From positions 123,554 to 187,553 of the forward strand of contig JAPOVQ010000006.1 of NCBI GenBank assembly GCA_026708035.1: a stretch of 64,000 bases of DNA, in the 5' to 3' direction. Each line of letters starts with the position of its first letter. The stretch's first letter is position 1. Positions 705 to 64,000 of the stretch are shown one piece after another. The stretch comes from Chloroflexota bacterium (GTDB taxonomy: Bacteria; Chloroflexota; UBA11872). A program made the translations under genes and the position numbers. The notes beneath the pieces were generated by a model. The model was not told where the DNA came from. It saw only the letters and a list, made by a program, of their open reading frames with translations, and searched no databases.

Positions 705-737
705 CTACCGTCATTCCGGCGGAAGTCGGAATCCAGT
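705..737. repeat. short palindromic repeat, family E (CGTCATTCCGGCGGAAGTCGGAATCCAG-like)
   Basis: Inverted repeat TCCGGCGGA/.../CGGAATCC. Reverse-complement copy at 63333-63361; related pieces at 21396-21412, 61760-61775, 63226-63250. Confidence 0.6.
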
Positions 738-768: not shown

Positions 769-798
769 ATGTAGGGGCGGGTCTCAGACCCGCCCGTC
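769..798. repeat. short palindromic repeat, family C (GTAGGGGCGGGT-loop-ACCCGCCC)
   Basis: Hairpin GGGCGGGTCTCAGACCCGCCC. Further copies at 54912-54936, 55058-55086, 60287-60310, 60338-60363. Confidence 0.65.
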
Positions 799-12416: not shown

Positions 12417-12799
12417 AGCGGGTCGGTCACAGTTCCGCTTGTCGTTGCTCGCGCTTTACCACCAATCGACGCGCCCGAACCGGCCACCGTGTCACTCCGA
12501 GCGCAGCAAGGTGTCTAAGGGGCGGCGAGAAATCCCAACGTCCTTAGATTCCTCACTGCGTTCGGAATGTCGAACTCGGCGCCAGGGCGTATGTCACCGC
12601 ATCGGCAGCCCAGCACGACAGGCGGCCCTCTTTCGCCGGATTCGTCACACTGGCGTGCCTGGGACGAGGCTATGCTCGAAGCGTGGCTTTCACGCCGGTG
12701 AACGGCTCCATGCACTTTGCCGACATTTCTAGCGGCTGGCGGTCCCGGATACGTCTGCGAGGCGGACGAGGCCGGGCGCAGCCTGGCCGCGCGGCCTGG

Positions 12800-14506
12800 A
12801 TGGCAGCGCTGATGGTCGGAATCGCAGTCATGCTGCTGGCTGTAGCGGCCTGCGGTGAGGACGAGCCGCCGCCGGAGCCGGCCACGCCGACCGTCGCGGC
12901 CGCGGCGCCTTCGCCCGCGCCGCAGCCGCCCACGCCCACCGCACCCGTGACAGCGGCACTCACCGCCGCGCCAACGGCCACTCCCACCCCGACGATCACG
13001 CCCACGGAGACTCCAACCCCAACGCCGACTCCAAGCCCAAGCCCCACGGCCACGCCTTCGCCGACTCCCACGCCGGAGCCGACTGCCGAGGCTCTCGACG
13101 CGTCCGACTTCGACCGAGATCGGCTGCACGAGGCCGTCGCGAACAACACGCCGGAGACGGTTCGCATGACGACCCAGGCTCGCCTGATTCCCATGGTCGA
13201 GGGCGAGATCGCGGTGACGCTCGAGCTCGTGCTCGCCGACGAGGCCATCCGAATGCTGATGGTGCTTGGGGCGGATGACCAGCAACTGAGCCTCGAGCTG
13301 ATCGTGATCGGCGACACCCAGTACTTCCGCACCGTGGATCCGGACGGAACCGAGAGCCCGTGGCTGGCGTCGTCGATCAACCCCGGTGAACCGGCGCTTA
13401 TCGACGCGCTGGGCGCCGGTGACCTGCTGGACGACATGATTCCCGACGACGACCAGGCGCCCATCGAAGCGGTCGGCGTGGAGGCCTGCGGCGACGGCCG
13501 GCAGTGCTTTGTGCTCACAAGTCCCGAGGAAGCCTGGGTGCAGCTGCTGGTGGATGCCGAGACCTATCTGCCCGTCGCATTTCGCGGCCCCGCGCTCGGC
13601 GAGGGCTTCGGAACGGACGTTGAGATGCGCTTGGAATGGAACGCCGATATCTCGATCAGCGCGCCGGAAGACTCGCAGCGCGTGTCCCCCGACGAATTCG
13701 GCCTCGCCCTGATCGGATTCTTCTTTGGCTCGGCGGGCATTACGCAGGGACCGACCCTGCCGCCCAGTACCGGGGGACAGCCCGGAACCGCCGTTGAAAT
13801 CGTGGCCCCCGACGAGCGCGCCGCCTTGTGGCTGGAGCTCGGCGCGTCGCCCTATGGAGAGGCGCTCGACGAGACCGGCGATCTGTTCCACGGCGACCCC
13901 GGCGTCTCGCCGGTGCGCTACGACCCCACGGTGGACATCTGGAACTGGGGCGCAGGGAGCATTGAGCTGGCGGAGGCCACGGCGGATGAGCTGTTCGGGC
14001 CGGACGGCGCATTCCCCTGCGGCTCGCTGGATCCGGTGGTCGCCTGCGGCGCGGATGGCGTAGGTCCCGGGACCTACCTGCTGATCTGGAGCGAAATGCT
14101 AGACCCGGTCCCGCTGGATGACGCCGCCTACGTTCGCACCTTCTGGGCCCTGTTCCAGGACGGCGACCCGGCAAACGATTGGGAGGCGCTGCCGCAGTTC
14201 GCCAACGACGTGCTGGACGGCAGCGACTCGCACTACTGGATTGCGGCAATACCGGACGGCTGGGAGTTGCGCCGCACCTTCGGCCCACAGTTGGAGCCGC
14301 GGCCGACCGATGGCGCGGCCATGATCCTGGCGAACGTCGTGGTCTTCTGGGTGCCGGTGTCGGAGCTTGGCGATCTGGACGCCCTCAGCCTGGGCGTGGC
14401 CAGTTTCAGCGGCCCCGTGGAAGACCCCTACGGCGTGAACGGAACCCTCGACCGGTCACCCGAGCCGCAGCAGCCGCTGACGCCGCTCGACGAGGTGGGG
14501 TTCTAG
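12800..14506 (+). CDS. secreted lipoprotein with Pro/Thr-rich linker, unknown function (paralog 1 of 3)
   Basis: Signal peptide with lipobox (LAVAAC at the signal-peptide end), then a PT-rich linker of about 90 aa. Two conserved domains follow, each with a Cys pair (ACGDGRQC; [11 protein letters not shown]). Start uncertain; ORF is open from GTG 12683. Confidence 0.6.
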   Translation: MAALMVGIAVMLLAVAACGEDEPPPEPATPTVAAAAPSPAPQPPTPTAPVTAALTAAPTATPTPTITPTETPTPTPTPSPSPTATPSPTPTPEPTAEALDASDFDRDRLHEAVANNTPETVRMTTQARLIPMVEGEIAVTLELVLADEAIRMLMVLGADDQQLSLELIVIGDTQYFRTVDPDGTESPWLASSINPGEPALIDALGAGDLLDDMIPDDDQAPIEAVGVEACGDGRQCFVLTSPEEAWVQLLVDAETYLPVAFRGPALGEGFGTDVEMRLEWNADISISAPEDSQRVSPDEFGLALIGFFFGSAGITQGPTLPPSTGGQPGTAVEIVAPDERAALWLELGASPYGEALDETGDLFHGDPGVSPVRYDPTVDIWNWGAGSIELAEATADELFGPDGAFPCGSLDPVVACGADGVGPGTYLLIWSEMLDPVPLDDAAYVRTFWALFQDGDPANDWEALPQFANDVLDGSDSHYWIAAIPDGWELRRTFGPQLEPRPTDGAAMILANVVVFWVPVSELGDLDALSLGVASFSGPVEDPYGVNGTLDRSPEPQQPLTPLDEVGF

Positions 14507-14525
14507 GGAGCGCACTTCCCGCAAC
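13921..14525 (+). repeat. roughly 600-bp near-identical direct repeat (copy 1), inside lipoprotein paralog 1 3' end
   Basis: Reads almost base-for-base like 15981-16585, including the first bases after the stop (TAGGGAGCGCA.TTCCCGC). Confidence 0.75.
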
Positions 14526-14684
14526 CGGTCCCACGCTGCACGCAGCGCGAGCTGCCGCGGGCGAGATTCGTCGCGGTGTTGCTGATTTGACCGTGTGACT
14601 ATGCTTAGGATCTGCCGTTCGCCCTGGGTAATGAGACGCTGCACGGCGCAGGCAATCTCGACTCAATGCCAGGGATGCGGTCGC

Positions 14685-16574
14685 ATGGATAAGTCGATGC
14701 CGCAATCTCGTGTCGCGGCGTGGGCGGGAATGCTGGCGATAGGGACGCTCCTGACGCTGGCCGTCGTTGGGTGCGGCGAGGACGAGCCTCCGCCGGAGCC
14801 GGCCACTCCGACCCCGACCGTCGAGGCTGCGGCGCCTTCGCCAACGCCCCAGACGCCCGCAGCCGTGACGGCAGCGCCAACCGCCACGGCCTCTCCTACG
14901 CCGACGGCCGCGCCAACGGCGACGCCGAGCCCAAGCCCAACCGCCACGGCCACTCCCACCCCGACGATCGCGCCAACGGCGACGCCGACGCCCACGCCGA
15001 CCCCGAGCCCGAGTCCCACGGCCACGCCTTCGCCAACTCCGACGCCCGAGCCGACTGCCGCGGCCCTCGACGCGTCCGACTTCGATCGCAGCCGACTGCA
15101 CCAAGCCATTGCGAGCAATCCGCTCGAGTCGCTGCGACTCTCCACCGAGGCCGGCCTGCTGCCGATGGTCGAGGGCGACATCGCGGTGACACTCGAGGTC
15201 GTGCCGGGGGACGATGCGGCGCGAATGCTGATGTCATTCGGTGCGGACGACCAAGAAGTGAGCCTCGAGCTGATCGTGATCGGCGACACGCAGTACCTGC
15301 GCGGAGTAGATCTGACGGGCATCGAGAGCCCGTGGGTAGCGACCAGGATCACTGCGAGCGCGCCGGCGCTGGTCGACGCCATCGGATCAGGCGACCTTGT
15401 TGACGACATAATCCCCGGCGACGACCAGGCGCCCATCGTGGCAGTCGGCGTGGAGGCCTGCGGCGACGGCCGGCAGTGCTTCGTGCTCACCAGTCCTGAG
15501 GACACCTCGGTGCGGCTGCTGGTCGATACCGAGACCTATTTGCCCGTGATGTCTCGCCGCCCGGCCGTCGGCGAGGATCTCGACACGGACGTCGAGTCGC
15601 TGATCGAGTGGAACGCCGAGGTTTCGATCAGCGCGCCGGCTGACGCGCGGCTTGTCTCCCACGATGAGTTCGCCCTCACCTATGCCAGCTTCTTCTTTAG
15701 CATGATGGGCCTCGCACAAGGGTCGCCCCCGCCGACCGCCACCATCGTCGGCCAAGAGACCATCAGAGAAGTGCCGGCGGAGACTGTCGTCACCAAGGAA
15801 ATCGTCAAGGAAGTGCCAGTCGAGACAATCGTCACTCGGGAGGTAGTCAGAGAATTACCGGTCGAGGCAGTCGTCGACACCCAGCGATCGGCGTTGTGGC
15901 TGGCGTTGGGTGCATCGCTCTATGGAGAGGCTCTCGACGACAGGGGAGATCTTTTCCACGGCGACCCAGGCATTTCGCCGGTGCGCTTCGACCCCACGGT
16001 GGACATCTGGAACTGGGGCGCGGGACGGATTGAGCTGGCCGAGGCCACGGCGCGCGAGCTGTTCGGGCCGGACGGCGAATTCCCCTGCGGCTCGCTGGAT
16101 CCGGTGGTCGCCTGCGGCGCGGATGGCGTCGCCCCGGGGGACTACCTGCTGATCTGGAGCGAGATGCTCGAACCGGTGCCGCTCGACGACGCCGCTTTCA
16201 TTCGCACCTTCTGGGCCCTGTTCCAGGACGGCGATCCGGCGAACGACTGGGAGGCGCTGCCACAGTTCGCCAATGATGTGCTGGACGGTAGCGACACGCA
16301 CTACTGGATTGCGGCAATTCCGGGCGGCTGGGAGCTACGCCGCACCTTCGGCCCGCAGCTGCAGCCCATGCCGACCGATGGCGCGGCCATGATCCTGACG
16401 AACGTCGTGGTCTTCTGGGTGCCGGTGTCGGAGCTTGGCGATCTGGACGCCTTGAGCCTGGGCGTGGCCAGCTTCAGCGGTCCCGTCGAAGATCCATCTG
16501 GCGTGGACGGAACCCTCGACCGGTCACCCGAGCCACAGCAGCCGCTGACGCCGCTGGACGAGGTGGGGTTCTAG
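14685..16574 (+). CDS. secreted lipoprotein with Pro/Thr-rich linker, unknown function (paralog 2 of 3)
   Basis: Lipobox VVGC, longer PT linker, same two Cys-pair domains. C-terminal about 200 aa nearly identical to paralog 1. Start uncertain; ORF open from 14595. Confidence 0.6.
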
Positions 16575-16585
16575 GGAGCGCATTC
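15981..16585 (+). repeat. roughly 600-bp near-identical direct repeat (copy 2), inside lipoprotein paralog 2 3' end
   Basis: See copy 1. Differences are scattered single bases. Confidence 0.75.
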
Positions 16586-16703
16586 CCGCCGCCGTTCCCA
16601 CATGGCACGCGGGTCGCGGCGTGGCGTTCGAGACTCGCCAGGCTGGGGCTGCTCGGGCAGCGGCTATGCTCACGCCGTGCAATTGGCGTCGTAGTTCGGC
16701 TTC

Positions 16704-18455
16704 ATGCGCTACACGAAGAGACTCCGCCCAATGATTGATACGTTGGTGCCAGGGAAGGCGCCGGGCATCCGCCGCACGGTCAGCGTCGTCACCCTGGCCC
16801 TTGGAACCGTGGTCATGCTCGCCGTTGCGGCCTGCGGCGAGGACGCCCCTCCACCCGAGGCGGCCACGCCGGCGCCCACGGCGGAGGCGGCGCTTTCCCC
16901 GACACCGCAGCCGGACACGACCACGCCAACTCCCACCGCAACCCCAACGGCAACACCCCAACCGACCGCCACTCCGGCGTCAACGCCGCAGCCCTCGCCG
17001 GCGGCGCCCGCCGATGCCTCGCTCGGCCGCGCCCAAGCCGTGGGCTTCGATGCCAGCCGGTTCGAGGACGCCCTCCAGAACGTCGCCGGAAACGCCACCC
17101 GGGTATCGATTGATATGGGCCCGCCGCTCTTCAAACCAGGGGAGCTCACGCTGATGGTCGAGACCGGGCCGGCGGGCGACACGATGCGCACGCTGATTAC
17201 CAGCGCGTCTTCAGGCCGCCCGCTGAGCATCGAGATGCTTCGAGTTGAAACCACGGCATTTGCCCGTGGCCAAGACGCCGACGGCAACTGGACTCCGTGG
17301 GTGGGGTCGATCGTCGCCGACGACCTCGGCTTGCCTTCCGCCGCCATGGGGACGGCGATTGAAGATCTCGAGGCCCTCGGCGTCTCGGGCGACGATCCCG
17401 GCTACAGCGTCATCGGCACGGTCGGGTGCCCGGACGGCGGAACGTGCTTTCTCCTCCAACTCCCCGACTTTGGAGAAGGGCAATTCGCGGAGCTGCTGGT
17501 TGACACGGAGACATATCTGCCGGTGGTGATGCGCCTGCGACCCGAGGGATTCCCCGGCTTCTACGACATGCTCATCGACTGGAACGCCGACGTCGCCATC
17601 ACGGCGCCGCAGGATGCGCAGTTGCTCACTCCGGAGGAGTTCGCAACGGCGGTCTCGAGGCTGATCGCCGTACAGACGGGCGCCAACGTAGATGCCAACC
17701 TGCCCGACCCGGCAACCGCGAGCGGCCAGGAGGGGGCCCTCCGGGAGTTGGTTCGGCTGCTTCCCGAGCTCGGCGCGTTGCCGGGCACCGAGGCGCGCGA
17801 CGGCAGCGGCGACTTGTTCCACCCCGATCTAGACAGCGCGAACGTGCGCAGCGATTCCACGATTGATATCGACACCTGGGGCGCCGGAGTGGTCGACCTG
17901 AGCGACTCAGGGGCGCGCGAGCTGTTCGGACCGGACGGGACGCTGTCCTGCGGCCCGGCGAATCCCGGTGTGGTCTGCGGCGCCACCGAAGTCGCTCCCG
18001 GACAGTATCTCGTGGTCTGGATGGCGCTCGTCGACGAGCTTCGCCCGGACGACGACAGTCACTTCCACACCTTCTGGGCCGTGTTCGACGACGGCGACCC
18101 GGCAAACGACCCTCCGCAGCTGCCTATGATCTCCCGCGATGTGCTGGAGAGCGCCGACCAGAACTATCGGATCGAGGAAACGCGTAGCGGCTGGCGGCTT
18201 GTTCGCACCTTCGGGCCGGAGTTTGAACGCACGCCGACCGGCGGCGCGGCGATCCTCGCCGAGGCCGTCGTGCTCTTTTGGTTGCCCGTGTCGGAGCTCG
18301 GCGATCCGGAGGCGCTGAGTCTGGGCGTGGCCAGCTCGAGCGGCTCACGCTTGAATCCGTTCGGCCCGGATGGGGCCTTCGACCGGTCGCCGGACCCCGG
18401 GCAGCCGCTGACGCCGCTCGAGGAAGTCCTGCCGCCAGCTCCCGTGAAGCGCTAA
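16704..18455 (+). CDS. secreted lipoprotein with Pro/Thr-rich linker, unknown function (paralog 3 of 3, more diverged)
   Basis: Lipobox VAAC, PT linker, same domain order with conserved motifs (ETYLPV, DLFHPD, DTWGAG, Cys pairs GCPDGGTC and SCGPANPGVVC). Confidence 0.6.
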   Translation: MRYTKRLRPMIDTLVPGKAPGIRRTVSVVTLALGTVVMLAVAACGEDAPPPEAATPAPTAEAALSPTPQPDTTTPTPTATPTATPQPTATPASTPQPSPAAPADASLGRAQAVGFDASRFEDALQNVAGNATRVSIDMGPPLFKPGELTLMVETGPAGDTMRTLITSASSGRPLSIEMLRVETTAFARGQDADGNWTPWVGSIVADDLGLPSAAMGTAIEDLEALGVSGDDPGYSVIGTVGCPDGGTCFLLQLPDFGEGQFAELLVDTETYLPVVMRLRPEGFPGFYDMLIDWNADVAITAPQDAQLLTPEEFATAVSRLIAVQTGANVDANLPDPATASGQEGALRELVRLLPELGALPGTEARDGSGDLFHPDLDSANVRSDSTIDIDTWGAGVVDLSDSGARELFGPDGTLSCGPANPGVVCGATEVAPGQYLVVWMALVDELRPDDDSHFHTFWAVFDDGDPANDPPQLPMISRDVLESADQNYRIEETRSGWRLVRTFGPEFERTPTGGAAILAEAVVLFWLPVSELGDPEALSLGVASSSGSRLNPFGPDGAFDRSPDPGQPLTPLEEVLPPAPVKR

Positions 18456-20080
18456 CCCTGATCGGCGCCGTAAAGCGTCGTGGCGGGGTGGAAGGACGAC
18501 CAGCCGAGCCAGTAGGCCAGGTGGCCCGGTAGGCGGGCGAGCTGAGCGCCGTCGGGGCGCACCAGCGCCTCTTCGGTGACCTGCCAAACCGTTCCTTGCT
18601 CGTCGACGACCGTGCGCGGTTCGCTGCCCGGCGCGAATTCCCGCTCGGCGCGCTCGAATGCGCGCACCGCCGCCCCGGCGCTCCAGGAGACATTGCCCCG
18701 CCGCCGGTCGATGCCGTCGATCGTCAGTTCCTCCCCGAGCGCGACGAGCACCACCGGCTGGTCGGCGACGGTGTCGTTGAGCACCCGGGCCTGGACCACG
18801 TCGGCCACCGCATAGGCGCGGGCGGAGTCCCCCAGCACGAGCGCGAATACGCGGTCCTTGGGGGCCAGGCCATCCGCCGTCGGCGCCGGGAACATCAGGT
18901 CGGGGCCGGCGAAGTAGCCGCCGTAGGCCGCGCCGGGCGAATAGTCGCGCCGGTGGCCCGTGTTGATGCTGAGAACCGCGGTCGTGGGGTTGGCCGTGCG
19001 CCAGGCGTCCCAGGTGGTCGTGACGATGGGGATGACATCCAGCCGGCCCGGATCGGCCGCCAGCGGCCCAAGCACGGGCTCACCGGTCAACTGATTCCAG
19101 AGCGTGAACGTGCCGCGGTCGTACATCAGCTTGTTGCTGCGCATCAGGAAACCCGACGTGCCGATGCTGAGCACGTCGCCGCGGTAGCGCCGGCTGAACA
19201 GCACGCCCGCGCCGCAGAGGGTGCAGTAGGCCAGCGCCACGGGCTCGCCGCCCACAACGTCGTTGGCCATCTCGTGCCAGTCCAGGATACGGAGCGGATA
19301 GGCGCGATAGTCGCCGTTGATCGCGACGCCGAAGACCACGTCGTCGGGTTCCAGGTAGGCCGCACTCTCGGCCGCGACCATCGGGGCCGACTCCAGCGGT
19401 GGGATGCCGTCCAGGCGCACGCCGCCCCAGACGATCTCCTCGAAGCGGATGCTGCGGGGCGCGCGCTCGTCGAAGAATCGGGCGAACTGGGGATCGATGC
19501 GGCTGTAGATGCGGCCTTTCCAGGCGCCGAATCCCGGCACGGCGGTCAGGTCGGTCCTGGCGTACCACTCGGCCCACTCCGCCCACGATTCGTGTTGTTC
19601 GCCGGTGAGTTGGAACAGACCCTGCCGAGCGTTGTCCCACGCGTCGGGATGAAACGCCCCAAGCTGCGCCGCCCGCAGGACCTCGATGAGCACCGAAATC
19701 AGCCGCTCGTCGCCGGTCGTGCCCATGTATGCGACCAGCTCCACCTGCGCCTCCGGATAGGTCGGGTCGAGCAGCAGGCCGTCAAGCAGCGATTGCGCCT
19801 GCTCGTCCGATAGCCGGCGGTCGTCCGGCACCGGGGTGCCGGCAAGCGCCGGCCGCGGCGTGGCCTCGGCGGTCGGTGTGGGCGTGGGCGCGGCGGTTGG
19901 CGTCGGCGCGGGTGTGGCCGTGGGGCTGGGTGTTGGCGATGGAGGCGCGGTGACGATCACTCTGGCGGCAGCGGCGGGCCTGGTCGGCGAGGCTGTCGAC
20001 GGGGTGTCGTCGCAAGCCGCCAGCGCGGCCGCCGCGCCCGCGGTCGCCAGCAGCCCAAGCGCACGGCGGCGCGACACCAC
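18452..20080 (-). CDS. DUF3179 family lipoprotein (Tat-type signal, PT-rich linker)
   Basis: Translation contains the DUF3179-like core (ILDWHEMANDVVGGEPVALAYCTLCG). SRRRALGLL...LAAC reads as a Tat signal plus lipobox. Start placed at GTG 20080/20077, downstream of an intergenic-type repeat that sits inside the longer ORF (ATG 20191). Confidence 0.6.
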   Translation of the reverse strand: MVSRRRALGLLATAGAAAALAACDDTPSTASPTRPAAAARVIVTAPPSPTPSPTATPAPTPTAAPTPTPTAEATPRPALAGTPVPDDRRLSDEQAQSLLDGLLLDPTYPEAQVELVAYMGTTGDERLISVLIEVLRAAQLGAFHPDAWDNARQGLFQLTGEQHESWAEWAEWYARTDLTAVPGFGAWKGRIYSRIDPQFARFFDERAPRSIRFEEIVWGGVRLDGIPPLESAPMVAAESAAYLEPDDVVFGVAINGDYRAYPLRILDWHEMANDVVGGEPVALAYCTLCGAGVLFSRRYRGDVLSIGTSGFLMRSNKLMYDRGTFTLWNQLTGEPVLGPLAADPGRLDVIPIVTTTWDAWRTANPTTAVLSINTGHRRDYSPGAAYGGYFAGPDLMFPAPTADGLAPKDRVFALVLGDSARAYAVADVVQARVLNDTVADQPVVLVALGEELTIDGIDRRRGNVSWSAGAAVRAFERAEREFAPGSEPRTVVDEQGTVWQVTEEALVRPDGAQLARLPGHLAYWLGWSSFHPATTLYGADQG

Positions 20081-20119
20081 CGCGCGTCGCGGGGCGGCTT
20101 GCTGTCTCCGCGCGCGCCC

Positions 20120-20164
20120 GGCTCCCTCTCCCCTGGAGAGAGAGGGCTGGGGTGAGGGGGATCC
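20120..20164. repeat. palindromic repeat family B (GGTCCCCTCTCCC-n4-GGGAGAGGG-TAGGGTGAGGGG) copy
   Basis: GGCTCCCTCTCCCCTGGAGAGAGAGGGCTGGGGTGAGGGGGATCC. Lies inside the longest ORF of the DUF3179 gene. Confidence 0.65.
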
Positions 20165-20500
20165 GAGACTCGGGCGTGGAAGATCGGCCATTTATGCAAG
20201 GGTCTCTTTCAAGGGGGACGGGACCGTACTTCGGCGGCGGTGGCGGGGTGTCTCACCCTGACCACAATGACCGGCTCCATCTTGAGCAGCCATGCGCGCC
20301 CTTGAGCTATCATCGCCGCTACTGTCAGTGGCCCCATTGTCAGGCCGCCGTATTTCACATGCGCTATTGACGTCCATTGCCAAGACTCCGGTGGGGGGCC
20401 TTCATCAAGCCATACGTATTCGGCCGCGATGCCGTTTGGCCTACCGTGGCAAAGCCACCGTTCGGGCACATGATGCCGACCATCTTGCCGAGCGGCTGAC

Positions 20501-21475: not shown

Positions 21476-21624
21476 TCCCCTCATCCCACCCTTCTCCCCA
21501 GGGGAGAAGGAGCCGAACGAACCGCCCGATTAGCGACGCATCCGCCAAAAGACTCCCGCCCCACCCGCGGGCCGGGACCGCCGGTCCGGTCCCCTCTCCC
21601 ACAGGGAGAGGGCTAGGGTGAGGG
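21476..21624. repeat. two family-B palindromic repeats (opposite orientations) in the MTase-lhr spacer
   Basis: CCCCTCATCCCACCCTTCTCCCCAGGGGAGAAGG (21476-21510) and GGTCCCCTCTCCCACAGGGAGAGGGCTAGGGTGAGGGG (21587-21624). Confidence 0.65.
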
Positions 21625-21649
21625 GCTCCGGCGCGGCTACCATGCCCCC

Positions 21650-29650: not shown

Positions 29651-29725
29651 GGCGACGTAGCCAAGTGGTAAGGCGGGGGTCTGCAAAACCCCTATTCCTC
29701 GGTTCGATTCCGAGCGTCGCCTCCA
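29651..29725 (+). tRNA. tRNA-Cys (anticodon GCA), CCA encoded
   Basis: Cloverleaf readable by eye. Acceptor GGCGACG/CGTCGCC; anticodon stem GGGGT/ACCCC with loop CTGCAAA; T-arm CTCGG-TTCGATT-CCGAG; 3' TCCA. Confidence 0.85.
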
Positions 29726-37942: not shown

Positions 37943-38165
37943 GTAGGGGCGCCCCTGGTGGGCGCCCGAATCTCGGCGCCGGTGGGACCGCCGGCGGGCA
38001 GCCACAAGGGCTGCCCCTACAGCCGGAAGGCCCAGGCCGCCCGGTGGACCCATCTCGGCTCGAGTCCGGTCCCCTCTCCCCGCAGGAGAGGGTTAGGGTG
38101 AGGGGAACGGCCGATCCCACGCTGCACGCAGCGCGGGCCACCGGACGCGCAGCGCGGCCTACCAG
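37943..38165. repeat. composite repeat cluster: family A (reverse orientation), family B, family D
   Basis: Family A at 37943-38020 (GTAGGGGCGCCCC...GGGCAGCCACAAGGGCTGCCCCTAC), family B at 38068-38104, family D (CCCACGCTGCACGCAGCGCGGGCCACCGG) at 38110-38140. Between dnaE and the MFS gene. Confidence 0.7.
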
Positions 38166-54911: not shown

Positions 54912-55151
54912 GGGCGGGTCAGAGACCCGCCCCTACGTCAGGTGAGATGCCAGGGTTCATTCCCCCTCACCCCAACCCTCTCCCACGGTGGGGAGAGGGG
55001 GCATGGGCGCCGCTCATCCCAAGCCCCCCGCGAGTGCCACATTGACGGACGCGGGTAGCGGCGGGTTTCAAACCCGCCCGTTCGGTGTAGGGGCAGCCCT
55101 CGTGGCTGCCCTGGTCATCGGCGGCGCGGGCGCCCGCGAGGGACGCCCCTA
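54912..55151. repeat. composite repeat cluster: families C, B (reverse), C, A
   Basis: C at 54912-54936; B at 54962-55000; C at 55058-55086; A at 55087-55151 (GTAGGGGCAGCCCTCGTGGCTGCCC...GGGCGCCCGCGAGGGACGCCCCTAG). Confidence 0.7.
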
Positions 55152-55218
55152 GATGCCCGTGCAAGGGTCGCGCCGGGATAGCGGGGGATCGCTTGGTCCC
55201 CCACCATCCCCGGAGCAC

Positions 55219-56487: not shown

Positions 56488-56711
56488 GTAGGGGCAGCCG
56501 TTGGGGCAGCCCTTGTGGCTGCCCGGATCCACCCGGACCAGCGCCCACCAGGGACGCCCCTACTAGGGCACGCAACGGTCCGACATTCCCGTGAAGGGAG
56601 GCGCCTGAGCAACCCCTCAAGCAGAGATTGGAGAGCGGGTCCGGTCCCCTCTCCCTTGATGGGAGAGGGTTAGAGCCTGCCCCGGACTCGATCCGGGGGT
56701 GAGGGTGATCC
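56488..56711. repeat. composite repeat cluster between YprB-like and YprA-like genes: family A then family B (with internal extra hairpin)
   Basis: A at 56488-56573; B at 56643-56711 containing the inserted hairpin CCCCGGACTCGATCCGGGG. Confidence 0.7.
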
Positions 56712-56738
56712 GAAGCTCGGGCGCCGGTCGTCGACCGT

Positions 56739-60286: not shown

Positions 60287-60363
60287 GGGCAGGTTTGAAA
60301 CCTGCCCCTACCGGAGACGCGCGCCACGTCGGGCGTAGGGGCGGGTTTGAAACCCGCCCGTTC
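60287..60363. repeat. two family-C hairpin repeats (GGGC[A/G]GGTTTGAAACC[T/C]GCCC)
   Basis: GCGGGCAGGTTTGAAACCTGCCCCTAC and GTAGGGGCGGGTTTGAAACCCGCCCGTTCC. Downstream of the TIMP-like gene. Confidence 0.65.
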
Positions 60364-60398: not shown

Positions 60399-61553
60399 TC
60401 AGGCCGCCCAGCTTGCGACGAAATCGTCCACGGTCACCGGCTGCCGCGGCTCGGCGTGGAGGCGTTGCGCCAGCCAGTCGCAGCGGCGCCACAGCTCGTT
60501 AGTCTCGGCGTCGCTGAACCACTCGCCGAAGTCCGCTCCCCAGCCCAGCGTGAGCGGATGGAGAGACTTGGCCTCGCGCTGCAAGTCCTCCGGCAGCTCG
60601 TCGAAGTCCGGCTGCCTGAGCAGGTAAATGTGCCGCGCGGCCTCGGCCACGCATGCCGTAAGGGTCAGCTTGGACGCGGGGCCGGCGCCGGGGTGCAAAC
60701 GCTCGAGCGCCGTGCGAAAGGCCGCCGCGTCGCCGTCCAGGACGCCCTTCAGCGCCCGCGCCGTGAGGTCCCGCTGCTCCGCGGCGAGGCGATTCCAGCT
60801 CTGGAACGCGGCGGCGGACGAGGGCGAGAGGTGGCGCGTGAAGCCCGGATCACGCGGCATGGCGTGCACCGAAATGCCGCCGTGCACGGTGCGCCGCAGC
60901 TTCGTGCTGTAGTTGCTGCCCCAGTGCAACATGCTGTGGTAGTAGATCAAGCCGTCGCCGGCCTTGAGCTTCACGGGCATGCCGCCCGGCAGCGGCGACC
61001 GCGGATCATCCCTGAGCCGCCGGTCCTCCTCGGGCGTGTTCAGTCGGCGGTGGCTGCCCGGAACCACCCAGAACACGTCGTCGTCGTAGAGCGGCAGGTT
61101 CCACTGCAGGTAGCGCGGGCCGGTTTCCGCCAGCTCCTCTTGCAGCAGCCACAACGGCGCCACCCCGTTGTTTCCAATGTCGCGGTGCCACTTGGCGGGG
61201 CCGTGGTCGACGCGTGGGTTGCACATCATCATCATGTGCATGGGCACCGCCTCGGTTCCGCTGAGCAGCTCGCGGCTGGTGCCCATGACCGGCTCGCTGA
61301 GCCATAGCTCGACCGCCGGCGCGGTTTCCTCGTCCACCAGCGCGTGAAAGTCGGGCACGCGCGGCTGCATGTGTTTTTCCCACATGCCGCCGGGCGGATC
61401 GTCGGGTCCAGCCTCGCGGCGCCAGACCTCGCGCTGTCGTTCCAATAGACCCTCGCAGGCCTCGCGTACCGCGTCGATCCGGTCGGCCGGGATGACGTTG
61501 CGCACGAAGAGATAGCCGTCGCGACGGAGCAGGGACTTGTTCAGGCTGGGCAT
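60399..61553 (-). CDS. phytanoyl-CoA dioxygenase (PhyH) family Fe(II)/2-oxoglutarate oxygenase
   Basis: HxD (WHRDIG), distal His (HWGSNYS), Arg (RRTVHG). 384 aa. Confidence 0.75.
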   Translation of the reverse strand: MPSLNKSLLRRDGYLFVRNVIPADRIDAVREACEGLLERQREVWRREAGPDDPPGGMWEKHMQPRVPDFHALVDEETAPAVELWLSEPVMGTSRELLSGTEAVPMHMMMMCNPRVDHGPAKWHRDIGNNGVAPLWLLQEELAETGPRYLQWNLPLYDDDVFWVVPGSHRRLNTPEEDRRLRDDPRSPLPGGMPVKLKAGDGLIYYHSMLHWGSNYSTKLRRTVHGGISVHAMPRDPGFTRHLSPSSAAAFQSWNRLAAEQRDLTARALKGVLDGDAAAFRTALERLHPGAGPASKLTLTACVAEAARHIYLLRQPDFDELPEDLQREAKSLHPLTLGWGADFGEWFSDAETNELWRRCDWLAQRLHAEPRQPVTVDDFVASWAA

Positions 61554-61631
61554 GGGGTCTCCGATGTTGGGCGACGCGCGACGCCTCGGTTCAGACGAGG
61601 CGTTTCACGAAGTGTGCTTGAGCGCTGAGTT

Positions 61632-61850
61632 TCCCACGCTGCCCACAGCGCGGGCCACCGGACCGAGCCCGTTCGGTGTAGGGGCAGCCCTAGTGGCTGC
61701 CCGGATCGAATTGCACGGGCGCCCACCAGGGGCGCCCCTACGCGGACCTGGCCGTCGCCGGGTCTGGATTCCCGCCCCGTTCGGTGTAGGGGCAGCCCTA
61801 GTGGCTGCCCGGATCGAACCGGACGGGCGCCCACCAGGGGCGCCCCTACG
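61632..61850. repeat. repeat cluster between PhyH paralogs: family D, then two tandem family-A elements separated by a family-E-like piece
   Basis: D at 61632-61660; A at 61678-61742 and 61786-61850, each GTAGGGGCAGCCCTAGTGGCTGCCC-n-GGGCGCCCACCAGGGGCGCCCCTAC. Confidence 0.75.
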
Positions 61851-61871
61851 CGGGCAACGGGGTCGCTCGGC

Positions 61872-63026
61872 CTACGTGCCCCAGCTCGCGGCGAACTGGT
61901 CCAGCGTCACCCGCTGCCGGGGCTCGGCCTGGAGACGCTGCGCCAACCACTCGAAGCGACGCCACAGCTCGTCGGCCTCCGCGTCGCTGAACCGGTCGGC
62001 GAAGGCCGGACCCCAGCCCAACGTGAGCGGGTGGAGGTGCGTGGCCTGTCGCTGCATCGCCTCCGGCAGGTCGTCGAAGCCCGGCTGCTTGAGCAGGTGA
62101 ATGTGACGCGCGGCTTCGGCCAGGCATGCCGTGAGGGTCAGCTTGGACGCGGGACCGGCACCGGGATGCAAGCGCTCGAGCGCCGCTTCAAAACCCGGCG
62201 CGTCGCCGGCCAAGACTCCGCGCAGCGCCTGGTCGGTGAGGTCCCGCTGCTCCGCCGCGCGGCGATTCCACGTCTGGAACGCAGCGGCGGACGAGGGCGA
62301 GAGATGGCGCGTGAAGCCGGTGTCCCGCGGCATGGCGTGCACCGCCATGCCGCCGTGCACCGTGCGCCGGAGCTTCGGGCTGTAGTTGCTGCCCCAGTGC
62401 AGCATGCTGTGGAGATAGATCAAGCCGTCGCCGGCCTTGAGCTCCACGGGCATGCCGCCCGGCAGCGGCGACCGCGGATCGTCCGCCAGCTGCCGATCCT
62501 CCTCCGGGGTATTCAGCCGGCGGTGGCTGCCCGGAACCACCCAGAGCACGTCGTCGTCGTAGAGCGGCAGGTTCCACTGCAAGTAGCGGGGGCCGGTTTC
62601 CGCCAGCTCCTCTTGCAGGAGCCACAGCGGCGCCACCTCGAGCGGCCCGATGTCGCGGTGCCACTTGGCGGGACCGTGGTCGGTGCGCGGGTTGCACATC
62701 ATCATCATGCGCATGGGCACCGCCTCAGGCCCGCTGAGCAGCTCGCGGCTGATACTCATGACCGGCTCGCTGAGCCAGATCTCGACCGCCAGCGCGGTTT
62801 CCGCGTCCACCAGTGCGTGAAACTCGGGCACGCGCGGCTGAGGGCGCATGTCCCACACGCCGCCGGGGAGATCGTCGGGCCCAGCCTCCTGGCGCCAGAT
62901 CTCGCGCTGCCGGTCCAGCACGCCCTCGCAGGCTTCGCGCACTGCGTCGAGCCGCTCGGCCGGGATGACGTCGCGCACGATGACGTAGCCGTCGCGACGG
63001 AGCTGGGATTGGTTCAAGCTGGGCAT
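61872..63026 (-). CDS. PhyH family oxygenase, tandem paralog of 60399-61553
   Basis: Same length, collinear, highly similar translation (MPSLNQSQLRRDGYVIVRDVIPAERLDAVREACEG...). Confidence 0.75.
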   Translation of the reverse strand: MPSLNQSQLRRDGYVIVRDVIPAERLDAVREACEGVLDRQREIWRQEAGPDDLPGGVWDMRPQPRVPEFHALVDAETALAVEIWLSEPVMSISRELLSGPEAVPMRMMMMCNPRTDHGPAKWHRDIGPLEVAPLWLLQEELAETGPRYLQWNLPLYDDDVLWVVPGSHRRLNTPEEDRQLADDPRSPLPGGMPVELKAGDGLIYLHSMLHWGSNYSPKLRRTVHGGMAVHAMPRDTGFTRHLSPSSAAAFQTWNRRAAEQRDLTDQALRGVLAGDAPGFEAALERLHPGAGPASKLTLTACLAEAARHIHLLKQPGFDDLPEAMQRQATHLHPLTLGWGPAFADRFSDAEADELWRRFEWLAQRLQAEPRQRVTLDQFAASWGT

Positions 63027-63104
63027 GGGGAATCCTGTGCTGCGTATCGCAATGTGTAGCGGTTCATGTGGAACGTCTCACGAAATGCATTTGAGCCCTG
63101 AGCT

Positions 63105-63361
63105 TCCCACACTGCACGCAGCGCGGGCCACCGGGCAAGCGGTCGCTCCGGTCCCCTCTCCCGCGGGGAGAGGGATAGGGTGAGGGGACGGGCGCCCACT
63201 AGGGGCGCCCCTACGCGGACCTGGCCGTCGCCGGACCTGGATTCCCGGCCCGCTCGATGTAGGGGCAGCCCTTGTGGCTGCCCGGTTCGACCCGGACGGG
63301 CGCCCACTAGGGGCGCCCCTACAGGGATAGGGGCGTCTCCGGGCCTGGATTCCGGCCTCCG
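63105..63361. repeat. repeat cluster upstream of PhyH paralog 2: families D, B, partial A, full A, E (reverse)
   Basis: D at 63105-63135; B at 63149-63187; partial A at 63189-63226; full A at 63259-63323; E reverse at 63333-63361. Confidence 0.75.
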
Positions 63362-63388
63362 CCGGAATGACGAAGGACTGGACACGCC

Positions 63389-64000
63389 CTACGACCCGTC
63401 CACGCCGATGTATTTCATCACCTGGTCCACCCACACGTCGTCGTAGCCCCTGCCTTCCCAGAGGCGGATCAGCGGCGCGTCGGCATCGGTGGGATGCACG
63501 CCCGCGGGATCGTGATCCAGCACGCCGAGGAGCTGCCGCCGCACGGGGTCGGCGCGCGCGATCAGCTCCGGCGAGCTGGCCACGCGATCGCCCAGCCGCA
63601 TCCAGATCGGGGAGTAGACGTAGAAGAGGTTCTTGCGCCGCACGTTTGAGGTGTTACGCGACACCGAGTGCCAGAGCGCGTTGTGAAACAGCATCGCGTC
63701 ACCCGCGCGCAGCAGCAGCTGCTTGGCGCCCGGCACGCCGGCGTCGATCTCGTCGACCTCCTGGAAGCGGCTCGGCGAGGCGAGGGTTTCGGCGTCGGCG
63801 ACCTCGTGCGGAAAGTTGCCGCGGTGGCTGCCGGGAATCAGCAGGAAGTTGCCCATGTCGGGCGCGTCCACGTCGGTCAGGAACCAGCCGATCTTCAGGT
63901 GCAGCAAAGGCGTCAGCCCGCCGGCGCTCGGAAACGGATAGGGCTTGGGGCCGTCGTAGTGCCAGCGGCTGCCCGGATGCGGCGTCGGTGGGCGCACCAT
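63389..64000 (-). CDS. PhyH family oxygenase (C-terminal part; N-terminus beyond window end)
   Basis: PGSHRG, FHNALWHS, RRKNLFYVYS motifs of the PhyH fold. ORF runs off the window. Confidence 0.6.
   Translation of the reverse strand: MVRPPTPHPGSRWHYDGPKPYPFPSAGGLTPLLHLKIGWFLTDVDAPDMGNFLLIPGSHRGNFPHEVADAETLASPSRFQEVDEIDAGVPGAKQLLLRAGDAMLFHNALWHSVSRNTSNVRRKNLFYVYSPIWMRLGDRVASSPELIARADPVRRQLLGVLDHDPAGVHPTDADAPLIRLWEGRGYDDVWVDQVMKYIGVDGS

Follow-up and report, generated by a model that had tools for sequence, protein, structure and literature searches.

Small palindromic repeats of known classes in the intergenic spacers of a high-GC Chloroflexota contig

This report concerns the short GC-rich palindromic repeats that crowd the spacers between genes in one 64,000-nucleotide (nt) stretch of Chloroflexota DNA (contig JAPOVQ010000006.1), which is referred to throughout as the window and which has a GC content of 69%. 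A first-pass annotation, made from the sequence alone, had singled out the interval 61560-63390 and sorted the repeats into families A to E. That interval comprises both spacers between three tandem minus-strand genes of the PhyH family (60399-61553, 61872-63026, and 63389 onward), and all of the clusters originally listed exist (700-800, 20120, 21476-21624, 37943-38165, 54912-55151, 56488-56711, 60287-60363, 61632-61850, and 63105-63361). The repeats were also said to flank PhyH genes, helicase genes, and dnaE, and Pfam confirms this, with PhyH paralogs, Lhr and DEAD/HRQ1 helicase genes, and dnaE as the neighbors of repeat-bearing spacers.

The repeats lie almost entirely between genes. On a gene call based on GC content at third codon positions (GC3), 13.9% of the window is non-coding, that is, outside called open reading frames (ORFs), and this fraction holds 30 of the 31 elements, distributed over 10 spacers, as had been claimed for these modules. 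The sole element in a called ORF, a copy of B at 20122-20160, lies within the first ~20 codons of the longest ORF call at 18452-20191, the start of which is probably over-extended. Co-directional genes border 7 of the 10 occupied spacers; at 60.3 kb the genes on either side converge (according to the source assembly's gene call), and the spacer at 38 kb, between dnaE and a gene of the major facilitator superfamily (MFS), is a divergent promoter region. Measured against dinucleotide-preserving shuffles of the window, every family exceeds chance: the pattern GTAGGGGC-N13-GCCC, with at most one mismatch, is matched 18 times (0.66 expected), the B core 6 times (0.00 expected), D 4 times (0.00 expected), and E twice (0.01 expected). 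At its gathering thresholds, Rfam matched the whole window only once, at a tRNA. That gene, a tRNA-Cys (GCA) at 29651-29725, is also the only ARAGORN match, and its spacer is free of these repeats.

The first-pass annotation proposed at least five families with family-specific sequences; we arrive at four classes. Families A and C are one class, the canonical long GTAG-tagged repetitive extragenic palindrome (REP), and D reads as a GTGG-footed REP, E as a CGTC-tagged REP, and B as the element called BoxC. The left arm of A, its right arm, and C share a single design, namely GTAG, GGGC, four variable bases, a 5-nt loop, the complement of those four bases, and GCCC. Four stem variants occur in the window, R1 (GGGCAGCC), R2 (GGGCGCCC), R3 (GGGCGGGT), and R4 (GGGCAGGT), each with three G-C pairs (GGG...CCC) at the bottom of the stem, and the stem follows GTAG directly in 15 of the 18 pattern matches. 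All 18 of these GTAG REPs are intergenic, and further copies lie in the 9 kb past the window end (L001; loci outside the window are cited by such labels). Folded as single-stranded DNA, each arm leaves GTAG unpaired and forms a stem of 8-9 bp (z -3.5 to -5.0). Family A is a head-to-head R1/R2 heterodimer, its arms on opposite strands and its GTAG feet outermost; the doublet at 61678-61741 also folds as a single long hairpin (-23.5 kcal/mol, z -4.1). Single arms are found alone at 771, 54912, and 63190. The elements of the window are as follows.

709-736, plus strand: CGTC-tagged REP (E), CGTC and stem ATTCCGGC / GTCGGAAT with one G.T pair, a 4-nt loop, and a CCAG tail.
771-795, plus strand: GTAG REP, R3 variant (C), GTAGGGGCGGGT-CTCAG-ACCCGCCC.
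14530-14558, minus strand: degenerate GTGG-footed REP (D), 3 mismatches to the window consensus.
20122-20160, plus strand: BoxC/PIT/TM triplex motif with type B linker, CTGGGGTGAGGGGG (compare Table 1 of PMC4666352).
21404-21416, plus strand: start of a CGTC REP, truncated or degenerate, CGTCATTCCCGCG...
21477-21510, minus strand: BoxC-like variant, CCCCTCATCCCACCCTTCTCCCC-A-GGGGAGAAGG.
21591-21625, plus strand: BoxC type A, CCCCTCTCCC-ACAG-GGAGAGGG-CTA-GGGTGAGGGG.
37943-38020: head-to-head REP heterodimer, R2 on the plus strand (37943-37967) and R1 on the minus strand (37996-38020), with a 28-nt spacer.
38071-38105, plus strand: BoxC type A, TTAGGGTGAGGGG.
38116-38144, minus strand: GTGG-footed REP (D), its minus strand reading GTGG-CCCGCGCTGC-GT-GCAGCGTGGG; position conserved in L132 and L133.
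54912-54936, minus strand: GTAG REP R3, GTAGGGGCGGGT-CTCTG-ACCCGCCC.
54962-55001, minus strand: BoxC with type B linker, TTGGGGTGAGGGGG.
55055-55152: REP trimer, R3 variant on the plus strand (55055-55079), R1 on the plus strand (55087-55111), and R2 variant with a CTAG foot on the minus strand (55128-55152).
56488-56563: head-to-head doublet, R1 on the plus strand (56500-56524) and degenerate R2 on the minus strand (56539-56563).
56646-56711, plus strand: BoxC interrupted behind TTAG by a hairpin of 24 nt, AGCCTGCCCCGGACTCGATCCGGG; no other clear nesting occurs in the window.
60287-60359: tail-to-tail REP pair with GTAG feet inward, R4 on the minus strand (60287-60311, GTAGGGGCAGGT-TTCAA-ACCTGCCC) and R3 on the plus strand (60335-60359), between convergent genes.
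61633-61661, minus strand: GTGG-footed REP (D), 1 mismatch.
61678-61741: family A doublet, R1 on the plus strand (61678-61702) and R2 on the minus strand (61717-61741).
61786-61849: family A doublet, a 108-nt tandem copy of the doublet at 61678-61741.
63106-63134, minus strand: GTGG-footed REP (D), 1 mismatch.
63153-63187, plus strand: BoxC type A, occupying the R1 slot of the paralogous spacer.
63190-63214, minus strand: lone R2 REP.
63259-63322: family A doublet, R1 on the plus strand (63259-63283) and R2 on the minus strand (63298-63322).
63345-63372, minus strand: CGTC-tagged REP (E), perfect 8-bp stem and GGAG loop.

In total, the window has six R1/R2 doublets arranged head to head, a single tail-to-tail pair, and clusters of mixed content. 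These module calls bear out the description of the spacers as mosaics akin to REPs and bacterial interspersed mosaic elements (BIMEs), with modules in both orientations and varying combinations. For the cluster at 63.1-63.4 kb, given as D-B-A-A-E, the first of the two A modules is only a half; the cluster runs D - B - half-A - A - E. The 12 nt at 56488-56499 are a duplicate of the R1 foot and 5' arm placed right before the R1 at 56500 (GTAGGGGCAGCC-GTTGGGGCAGCC...).

The GTAG class extends far beyond this lineage. When one genome per species was scanned with GTAGGGGCAGCC-N5-GGCTGCCC, the exact 25-nt R1 arm was found in at least 120 stretches from about 15 phyla, in both orientations and at loci of 33-73% GC. 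The matches listed come from Chloroflexota (many), Acidobacteriota, Planctomycetota, Poribacteria, Gemmatimonadota, Myxococcota, Bdellovibrionota, Nitrospirota, Thermodesulfobacteriota, Chlorobiota, Bacteroidota, Bacillota, Cyanobacteria, Pseudomonadota, and others, and the same scan of viral contigs gave 5 stretches. The R1 loop is mostly CTTGT, CTCGT, CTAGT, CTGGT, or CTTGC. Covariation was examined in a way that presupposes no pairing, by collecting non-R1 matches to GTAGGGGC-N4-N5-N4-GCCC in 120 unrelated R1 loci. In 49 of the 67 matches all four free positions are complementary, in another 15 three of the four are, and 11 different stems are represented; because so many stems retain complementarity, we conclude that the GTAG hairpin is kept by compensatory change. 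An extreme BIME-like cluster was met in a low-GC thermophile: loci L034, L032, L013, L024, and L075, from a Caldimicrobium metagenome-assembled genome of 35-39% GC, hold up to 11 GTAGGGGC REPs within 400 nt, with many different stems and 4-nt loops (CACG, CATG).

Two candidate observations on R1 were set aside. R1 pairs about 1 kb apart in L076, L084, and L008 were considered as REPtrons, and the ORFs that they flank are ordinary-looking, lack transposase motifs, and have no RayT match. The R1 3' arm and flank also resemble PhyH coding sequence (61050-61075, 62523-62548, and 63821-63847; 81-88%), where the conserved VPGSH motif is encoded, and this resemblance is probably due to chance under coding constraint.

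Published work provides a framework for the GTAG class. Most REPs fall into GTAG- or CGTC-tagged super-families that form head-to-head dimers and clusters (Di Nocera et al. 2013, PMC3733652), and the REPs of subclass 2.4 of the REP-associated tyrosine transposases (RAYTs) are of two kinds, "canonical long" REPs, whose stem has three G-C pairs at its bottom, and "double foot" REPs (Quentin et al. 2018, BMC Genomics 19:475, PMC6006769). The window's GTAG REPs resemble those of subclass 2.4 (RAYT group 4 of Bertels) in the GTAG foot 5' at the hairpin base, the three G-C pairs at the stem bottom, the head-to-head dimers, the patchy spread over many phyla, and the "double foot" variants that occur in related loci (L014 and L016). 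They differ in that the host is a high-GC Chloroflexota, whereas subclass 2.4 is described as abundant in Cyanobacteria and Bacteroidetes (PMC6006769), and in that the window's dimers combine two particular stems, GGGCAGCC and GGGCGCCC, as heterodimers.

The doublets also invite comparison with REPINs. The 108-nt tandem copy at 61678/61786 and two doublets inside a RAYT gene, described below, are REPIN-like; unlike REPINs, however, they have arms that differ in stem sequence, and the RAYT linked to them is of group 4, not of groups 2 or 3. In the REPINs of Pseudomonas fluorescens treated by Bertels and Rainey in 2011, two inverted REPs reportedly make a longer hairpin that seems to be the copied unit.

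A search for RAYT genes found, in related contigs, genes that carry these repeats or are flanked by them (L130, L014, L140, and L161). For the GTAG class, the fullest picture comes from L130, which is scaffold_25 of sample ROBB21-1_SAMN13943207; the window derives from scaffold_71 of the sister sample ROBB21-1_SAMN13943205. L130 has a GC content of 69.1%, and its tetranucleotide composition correlates with that of the window at 0.994, the window's own 8-kb pieces giving 0.972-0.990. It encodes a protein of 252 amino acids (P0020) with the motifs NHIH, WQRRYYEH, and YVQDNP, in whose gene two R2/R1 doublets lie in frame (L130:10316-10509) and against whose start codon a degenerate doublet abuts; an R3, a CGTC REP, a D copy, and a double-foot REP are found nearby. 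The window's dimer at 37943-38020 has the doublet architecture seen inside this gene and is 78% identical over 95 nt to L130:10423-10511. With the REP insert removed, P0020 passes the Pfam Y1_Tnp model (28.7 bits, cut-off 23), and E. coli TnpA_REP (4ER8) is the one solved structure that it matches. Subclass-2.4 transposases are characterized by NH[IFV]H, WQ, and YIxNNP, and in-frame REPs inside the gene are a known trait of the subclass (PMC6006769); the third motif of P0020 is Y..DNP rather than Y..NNP, so that the fit is close and inexact. It is plausible but unproven that the L130 RAYT and the window reside in one genome.

The same organization recurs more widely. L014, a Chloroflexota genome reached through R1, has two Y1-transposase genes, each with an in-frame GTAGGGGC REP or an R1-containing doublet. 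A homolog search returned 780 matches, P0020 being one, and the best 120 were examined; in 111 of these both catalytic motifs could be located, and REP-encoded peptides lie between the motifs in at least 100 of the 111. Among the best 120, a homolog carries from one to about ten REP copies. The peptides include VGAPLVGA (R2-like stem), RAATRAAPT and VGAALVAA (R1), RAPTRGAPT (R2), and VGAGLVPA and RAGTRPAPT (R3 stem). Based on these motifs and embedded repeats, the GTAG class likely belongs with a subclass-2.4 RAYT that carries its own REPs in frame. L129:3001-3615 (P0042), a subclass-2.4 RAYT with embedded REPs, lies within a type I restriction-modification operon, where it separates the gene for the specificity subunit from that for the restriction subunit.

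On the minus strand, family D reads G-GTGG-CCCGCGCTGC-GT-GCAGCGTGGG. As a simple plus-strand hairpin it appeared weak (z -1.15), a difficulty resolved by the minus-strand reading with a GTGG foot, since only on that strand is the stem mismatch a G.T wobble (-18.3 versus -13.0 kcal/mol as RNA). Stem position 5 exists in three compensatory states (G:C, C:G, and T:A). D is rare (27 stretches in a metagenome collection, 21 of them from one project) and often occurs as an inverted pair 45 nt apart, ~90 nt overall, with a conserved 19-nt core (L016, L132, L136, and L154). In L140, two D copies in inverted orientation flank a RayT-type gene that scores 110 bits against NF047646, the NCBIfam equivalog "REP-associated tyrosine transposase" (cut-off 80). 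Its homolog in L153, which has D at one flank and a degenerate copy at the opposite flank, reaches 114 bits, and the homologous gene in L161 has an exact window-type D ~100 nt upstream and another, inverted, 30 nt downstream. The motifs of these genes (DHIH, WE, and YIDTNP) are close to subclass 2.2. Because D flanks the RayT-type genes of L140 and L161, we regard it as the REP of a RayT-type enzyme.

In this respect D recalls the E. coli REP/BIME system and its REPtron with RayT (4ER8, subclass 2.2): its foot (GTGG) is of the GT[AG]G type, its stem is 10 bp long, and it forms inverted pairs; the RayT-type genes beside it include ones that score above the NCBIfam equivalog cut-off; and, as in E. 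coli BIMEs, REPs of several subtypes intermingle with other motifs in mosaics. Unlike the E. coli Y and Z REPs, D has a stem that is perfect or broken by a single wobble and a 2-nt loop, without a bulged long hairpin. All four D copies (14530, 38116, 61633, and 63106) are located 65-95 nt upstream of a start codon. The idea that D is a transcription-factor operator was set aside, as other genomes have the same sequence complete with its non-palindromic tail, and it also borders RAYT genes. A local regulatory role besides that of a REP is possible; the position upstream of the MFS gene is conserved in the window and two relatives. Downstream of a RayT-type gene, L163:2020-2560 is a tandem array of six 88-nt units, each ending in a GTGG-type REP (CCCGACTT...AAGTCGGGCCACC).

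Family E has the form CGTC-ATTCCGGC-GGAG-GCCGGAAT-CCAGG, with a CGTC foot, an 8-bp stem starting AT, a 4-nt loop, and an unpaired CCA tail. Compared by sequence and predicted fold, it fits every part of the published CGTC-1 description, which gives a CGTC foot, a stem of 8-9 bp starting AT, a loop of 4-5 nt, and a CCA tail; CGTC-1 includes Neisseria dRS3 and Rickettsia RPE-6, and no dedicated transposase is reported for the class (PMC3733652). E likewise has no associated transposase. The window has two full CGTC REPs and one fragment, and 20 related copies were counted in 0.9 Mb of R1-bearing loci. In contrast to the CGTC repeats of Di Nocera et al., for which five phyla are listed with Chloroflexi absent, the host here is a Chloroflexota; and, unlike CGTC-1, some related copies (L077 and L130) have a second hairpin nested in the loop.

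For family B, a window copy compared with E. coli chromosomes gave 88% identity over 42 nt in 5409 of 5426 genomes, at a median of 16 places each. B also matches Table 1 of Holder et al. (2015, NAR 43:10126, PMC4666352), including the type A (TTAGGG) and type B (CYGGGG) linkers, and on this likeness we identify it as BoxC, also called the PIT element or TM(ECO). The same study reports triplex formation in vitro, more rearrangement at BoxC/TM loci than at control sites among E. coli strains, and no mobility genes associated near the E. coli copies. Hairpin folding of B is unremarkable (z -1.3 as DNA, -0.4 as RNA), which would fit a non-hairpin structure such as the putative intrastrand triplex. 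The likeness to BoxC/TM(ECO) extends to the three blocks (CCCTCTCCC, loop, GGGAGAGGG, TTA or CYG, GGGTGAGGG(G)), to both linker types, and to intergenic placement in both orientations linked with variable loci. In contrast to E. coli BoxC, the host is a Chloroflexota at 69% GC, copies lie inside REP clusters and twice in the slot of a REP dimer partner, and this lineage has a conserved 3' extension, GAYCCGANNCTYGGGCG, itself a small palindrome (20160-20176, 56712-56728, and L108).

Comparison of syntenic spacers in relatives speaks to how such mosaics change. Those DnaE homologs that have a source name are labeled Chloroflexi or Chloroflexota. The dnaE loci of the window, L132 (DnaE 91% identical), and L133 (83%) compare as follows.

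MFS-dnaE spacer: D-BoxC-R1/R2 in the window; D-D'-two CGTC REPs in L132; D-D' in L133.
Spacer between dnaE and an apurinic/apyrimidinic (AP) endonuclease gene: 60 nt in the window; 275 nt in L132, including a pair of CGTC REPs and a remnant resembling BoxC; 79 nt in L133.
Repeat-free control spacer: 134 nt at all three loci.

Since orthologous dnaE spacers differ in module content, modules have been gained and lost. This comparison and the search for RAYT genes had both been suggested in the first-pass annotation, and both gave what a REP reading predicts. The clusters at 61.6 and 63.1 kb are not independent events, because they are paralogous copies within a 1473-bp tandem gene duplication. 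The two spacers align collinearly, with repeats 87% identical and the duplicated genes 84%, from which it follows that the repeats were copied along with the PhyH genes. The PhyH-family dioxygenase paralogs number three (60399-64000 and L001:8523-9638); the first two are those that are 84% identical as DNA, and the third has diverged further from them. Downstream come additional oxidoreductase genes and HpcH/HpaI aldolase genes. The window's other tandem array, at 12683-18455, has one degenerate D and neither a GTAG REP nor BoxC between its genes. It consists of three paralogs of 607, 659, and 583 amino acids, spaced 2068 and 1863 nt apart, whose N-termini share a segment; the first of them, the only one scanned, has no Pfam match.

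Taken together, we propose, at a probability of roughly 0.8, that these spacers are BIME-like mosaics of four known kinds of small repeat, in which the GTAG and GTGG REPs are substrates of cognate RAYTs. In this model, the GTAG REPs (A and C) and the GTGG REP (D) would be substrates of HUH/Y1 RAYTs (TnpA_REP). By analogy with E. coli TnpA_REP, we infer that the enzyme would recognize the hairpin and the unpaired GT[AG]G foot on single-stranded DNA and then cut and rejoin there. Over evolutionary time, such activity would copy, delete, and cluster REPs in tolerant intergenic DNA. CGTC REPs and BoxC have built up in the same spacers. If transcribed, the hairpins of co-directional spacers would be stable RNA stem-loops that could protect upstream mRNA.

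Several observations weigh against this proposal. In a further departure from subclass-2.4 REPs, no RAYT gene was found in the window when its six-frame ORFs were searched with E. coli RayT and a subclass-2.4 profile. The composition of L130 does not set it apart: other high-GC Chloroflexota loci reach tetranucleotide correlations of 0.988-0.992, and composition therefore shows that L130 and the window share a lineage, not a genome. P0020 falls below curated cut-offs, with 50.8 bits against the 80 of NF047646 and, with its insert kept, 20.6 against the 23 of Pfam. No mobilizing enzyme is known for either CGTC REPs or BoxC, and BoxC has neither promoter nor terminator activity according to earlier work cited in PMC4666352. 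An R2-like remnant sits beside dnaE in the window, L132, and L133 alike, so the differences between these spacers mix old insertion, differential decay, and lineage-specific gains.

The strongest alternative is that the hairpins are host RNA elements under selection (terminators, attenuators, or insulators) and not mobile DNA. Most clusters do lie between co-directional genes, the hairpins are very stable as RNA (-17.6 to -18.5 kcal/mol), the G.T pairs in the E copy at 709-736 and in the GTGG strand of D would pair as G.U in RNA, and in three relatives D keeps its place ahead of the MFS gene. However, a T tract follows none of the REP hairpins, and a scan for intrinsic terminators gave 3 sites where 3.8 were expected, with none in REPs or in the REP clusters of 54-64 kb, so the proposal that the repeats act as terminators is not borne out. 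Local selection for terminators also leaves unexplained a 25-mer that recurs unchanged, in both orientations, across about 15 phyla and such a range of GC contents. Module content that varies between orthologous spacers, repeats inside or beside RAYT genes, and a cluster in the divergent promoter region between dnaE and the MFS gene count against this alternative as well. We thus consider this alternative unlikely as a replacement for RAYT-linked mosaics, with the proviso that an RNA role and mobility are not mutually exclusive.

A second alternative, in line with an initial suggestion, is that the repeats are mainly recombination substrates that produced the tandem gene amplifications in the window. 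REP clusters fill both spacers of the PhyH triplication, and the rearrangement of BoxC/TM loci among E. coli strains (PMC4666352) lends the idea some appeal. But the repeats were duplicated with the genes long ago, as their similar divergence indicates, and no junction can be placed in a repeat; the array at 12.7-18.5 kb has a single degenerate D and no GTAG REP or BoxC between its genes; and most REP clusters (0.7, 21.5, 38, 55, 56.6, and 60.3 kb) flank single-copy genes. We judge such a role highly improbable.

The least credible alternative holds that the elements are miniature inverted-repeat transposable elements (MITEs), internally deleted classical insertion sequences mobilized via terminal inverted repeats, as the original "MITE-like" label implied: GTAGGGG/CCCCTAC inverted ends bracket family A, which folds into a single long hairpin, and D often forms its ~90-nt inverted pair around a conserved core, yet the units measure 25-65 bp without a coding remnant, single arms stand alone, the "inverted ends" are GTAG feet belonging to two independent hairpins that differ in stem, and the linked genes found are HUH/Y1 RAYTs only, with no DDE transposase or insertion sequence remnant seen in a search near the repeats that was aimed at Y1 transposases alone.

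Within the reading of the spacers as RAYT-linked mosaics, only one lead goes beyond what is known, and this is the appearance of BoxC in REP slots, seen in two independent comparisons. In the paralogous spacers, the R1 segment 61662-61716 is replaced by an equally long BoxC segment, 63135-63189, leaving D-to-R2 at 55 nt in both. In the orthologous dnaE spacers, the BoxC at 38071-38105 sits where L132 (2187-2232) and L133 carry a D' hairpin, and in L164 BoxC adjoins REPs that flank a RayT-type gene. The BoxC linker xTAGGG, moreover, resembles the REP foot GTAGGG. With two or three cases, and those in repetitive GC-rich DNA, the evidence is weak; we speculate, as a long shot, that BoxC, a pan-bacterial triplex motif, may enter genomes at REP sites or be acted on by the RAYT machinery that handles REPs.

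All of these elements fall into previously described classes, their likely enzymes belong to known subclasses, and this is not a new kind of element. For annotation, the spacers can be labeled as REP/BIME and BoxC repeats, and the REP labels account for spurious ORFs in which peptides like VGAALVAA or RAPTRGAPT occur; at these repeat sites, breaks or collapses in assemblies may be expected. For the biology, one uncultured Chloroflexota lineage has four known classes of palindromic repeat, with REP types that match at least two RAYT classes. The exact 25-nt REP common to about 15 phyla (33-73% GC) fits the published view that subclass-2.4 RAYTs spread horizontally. Module content, in turn, turns over between close relatives. 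Current understanding is unchanged by these findings.

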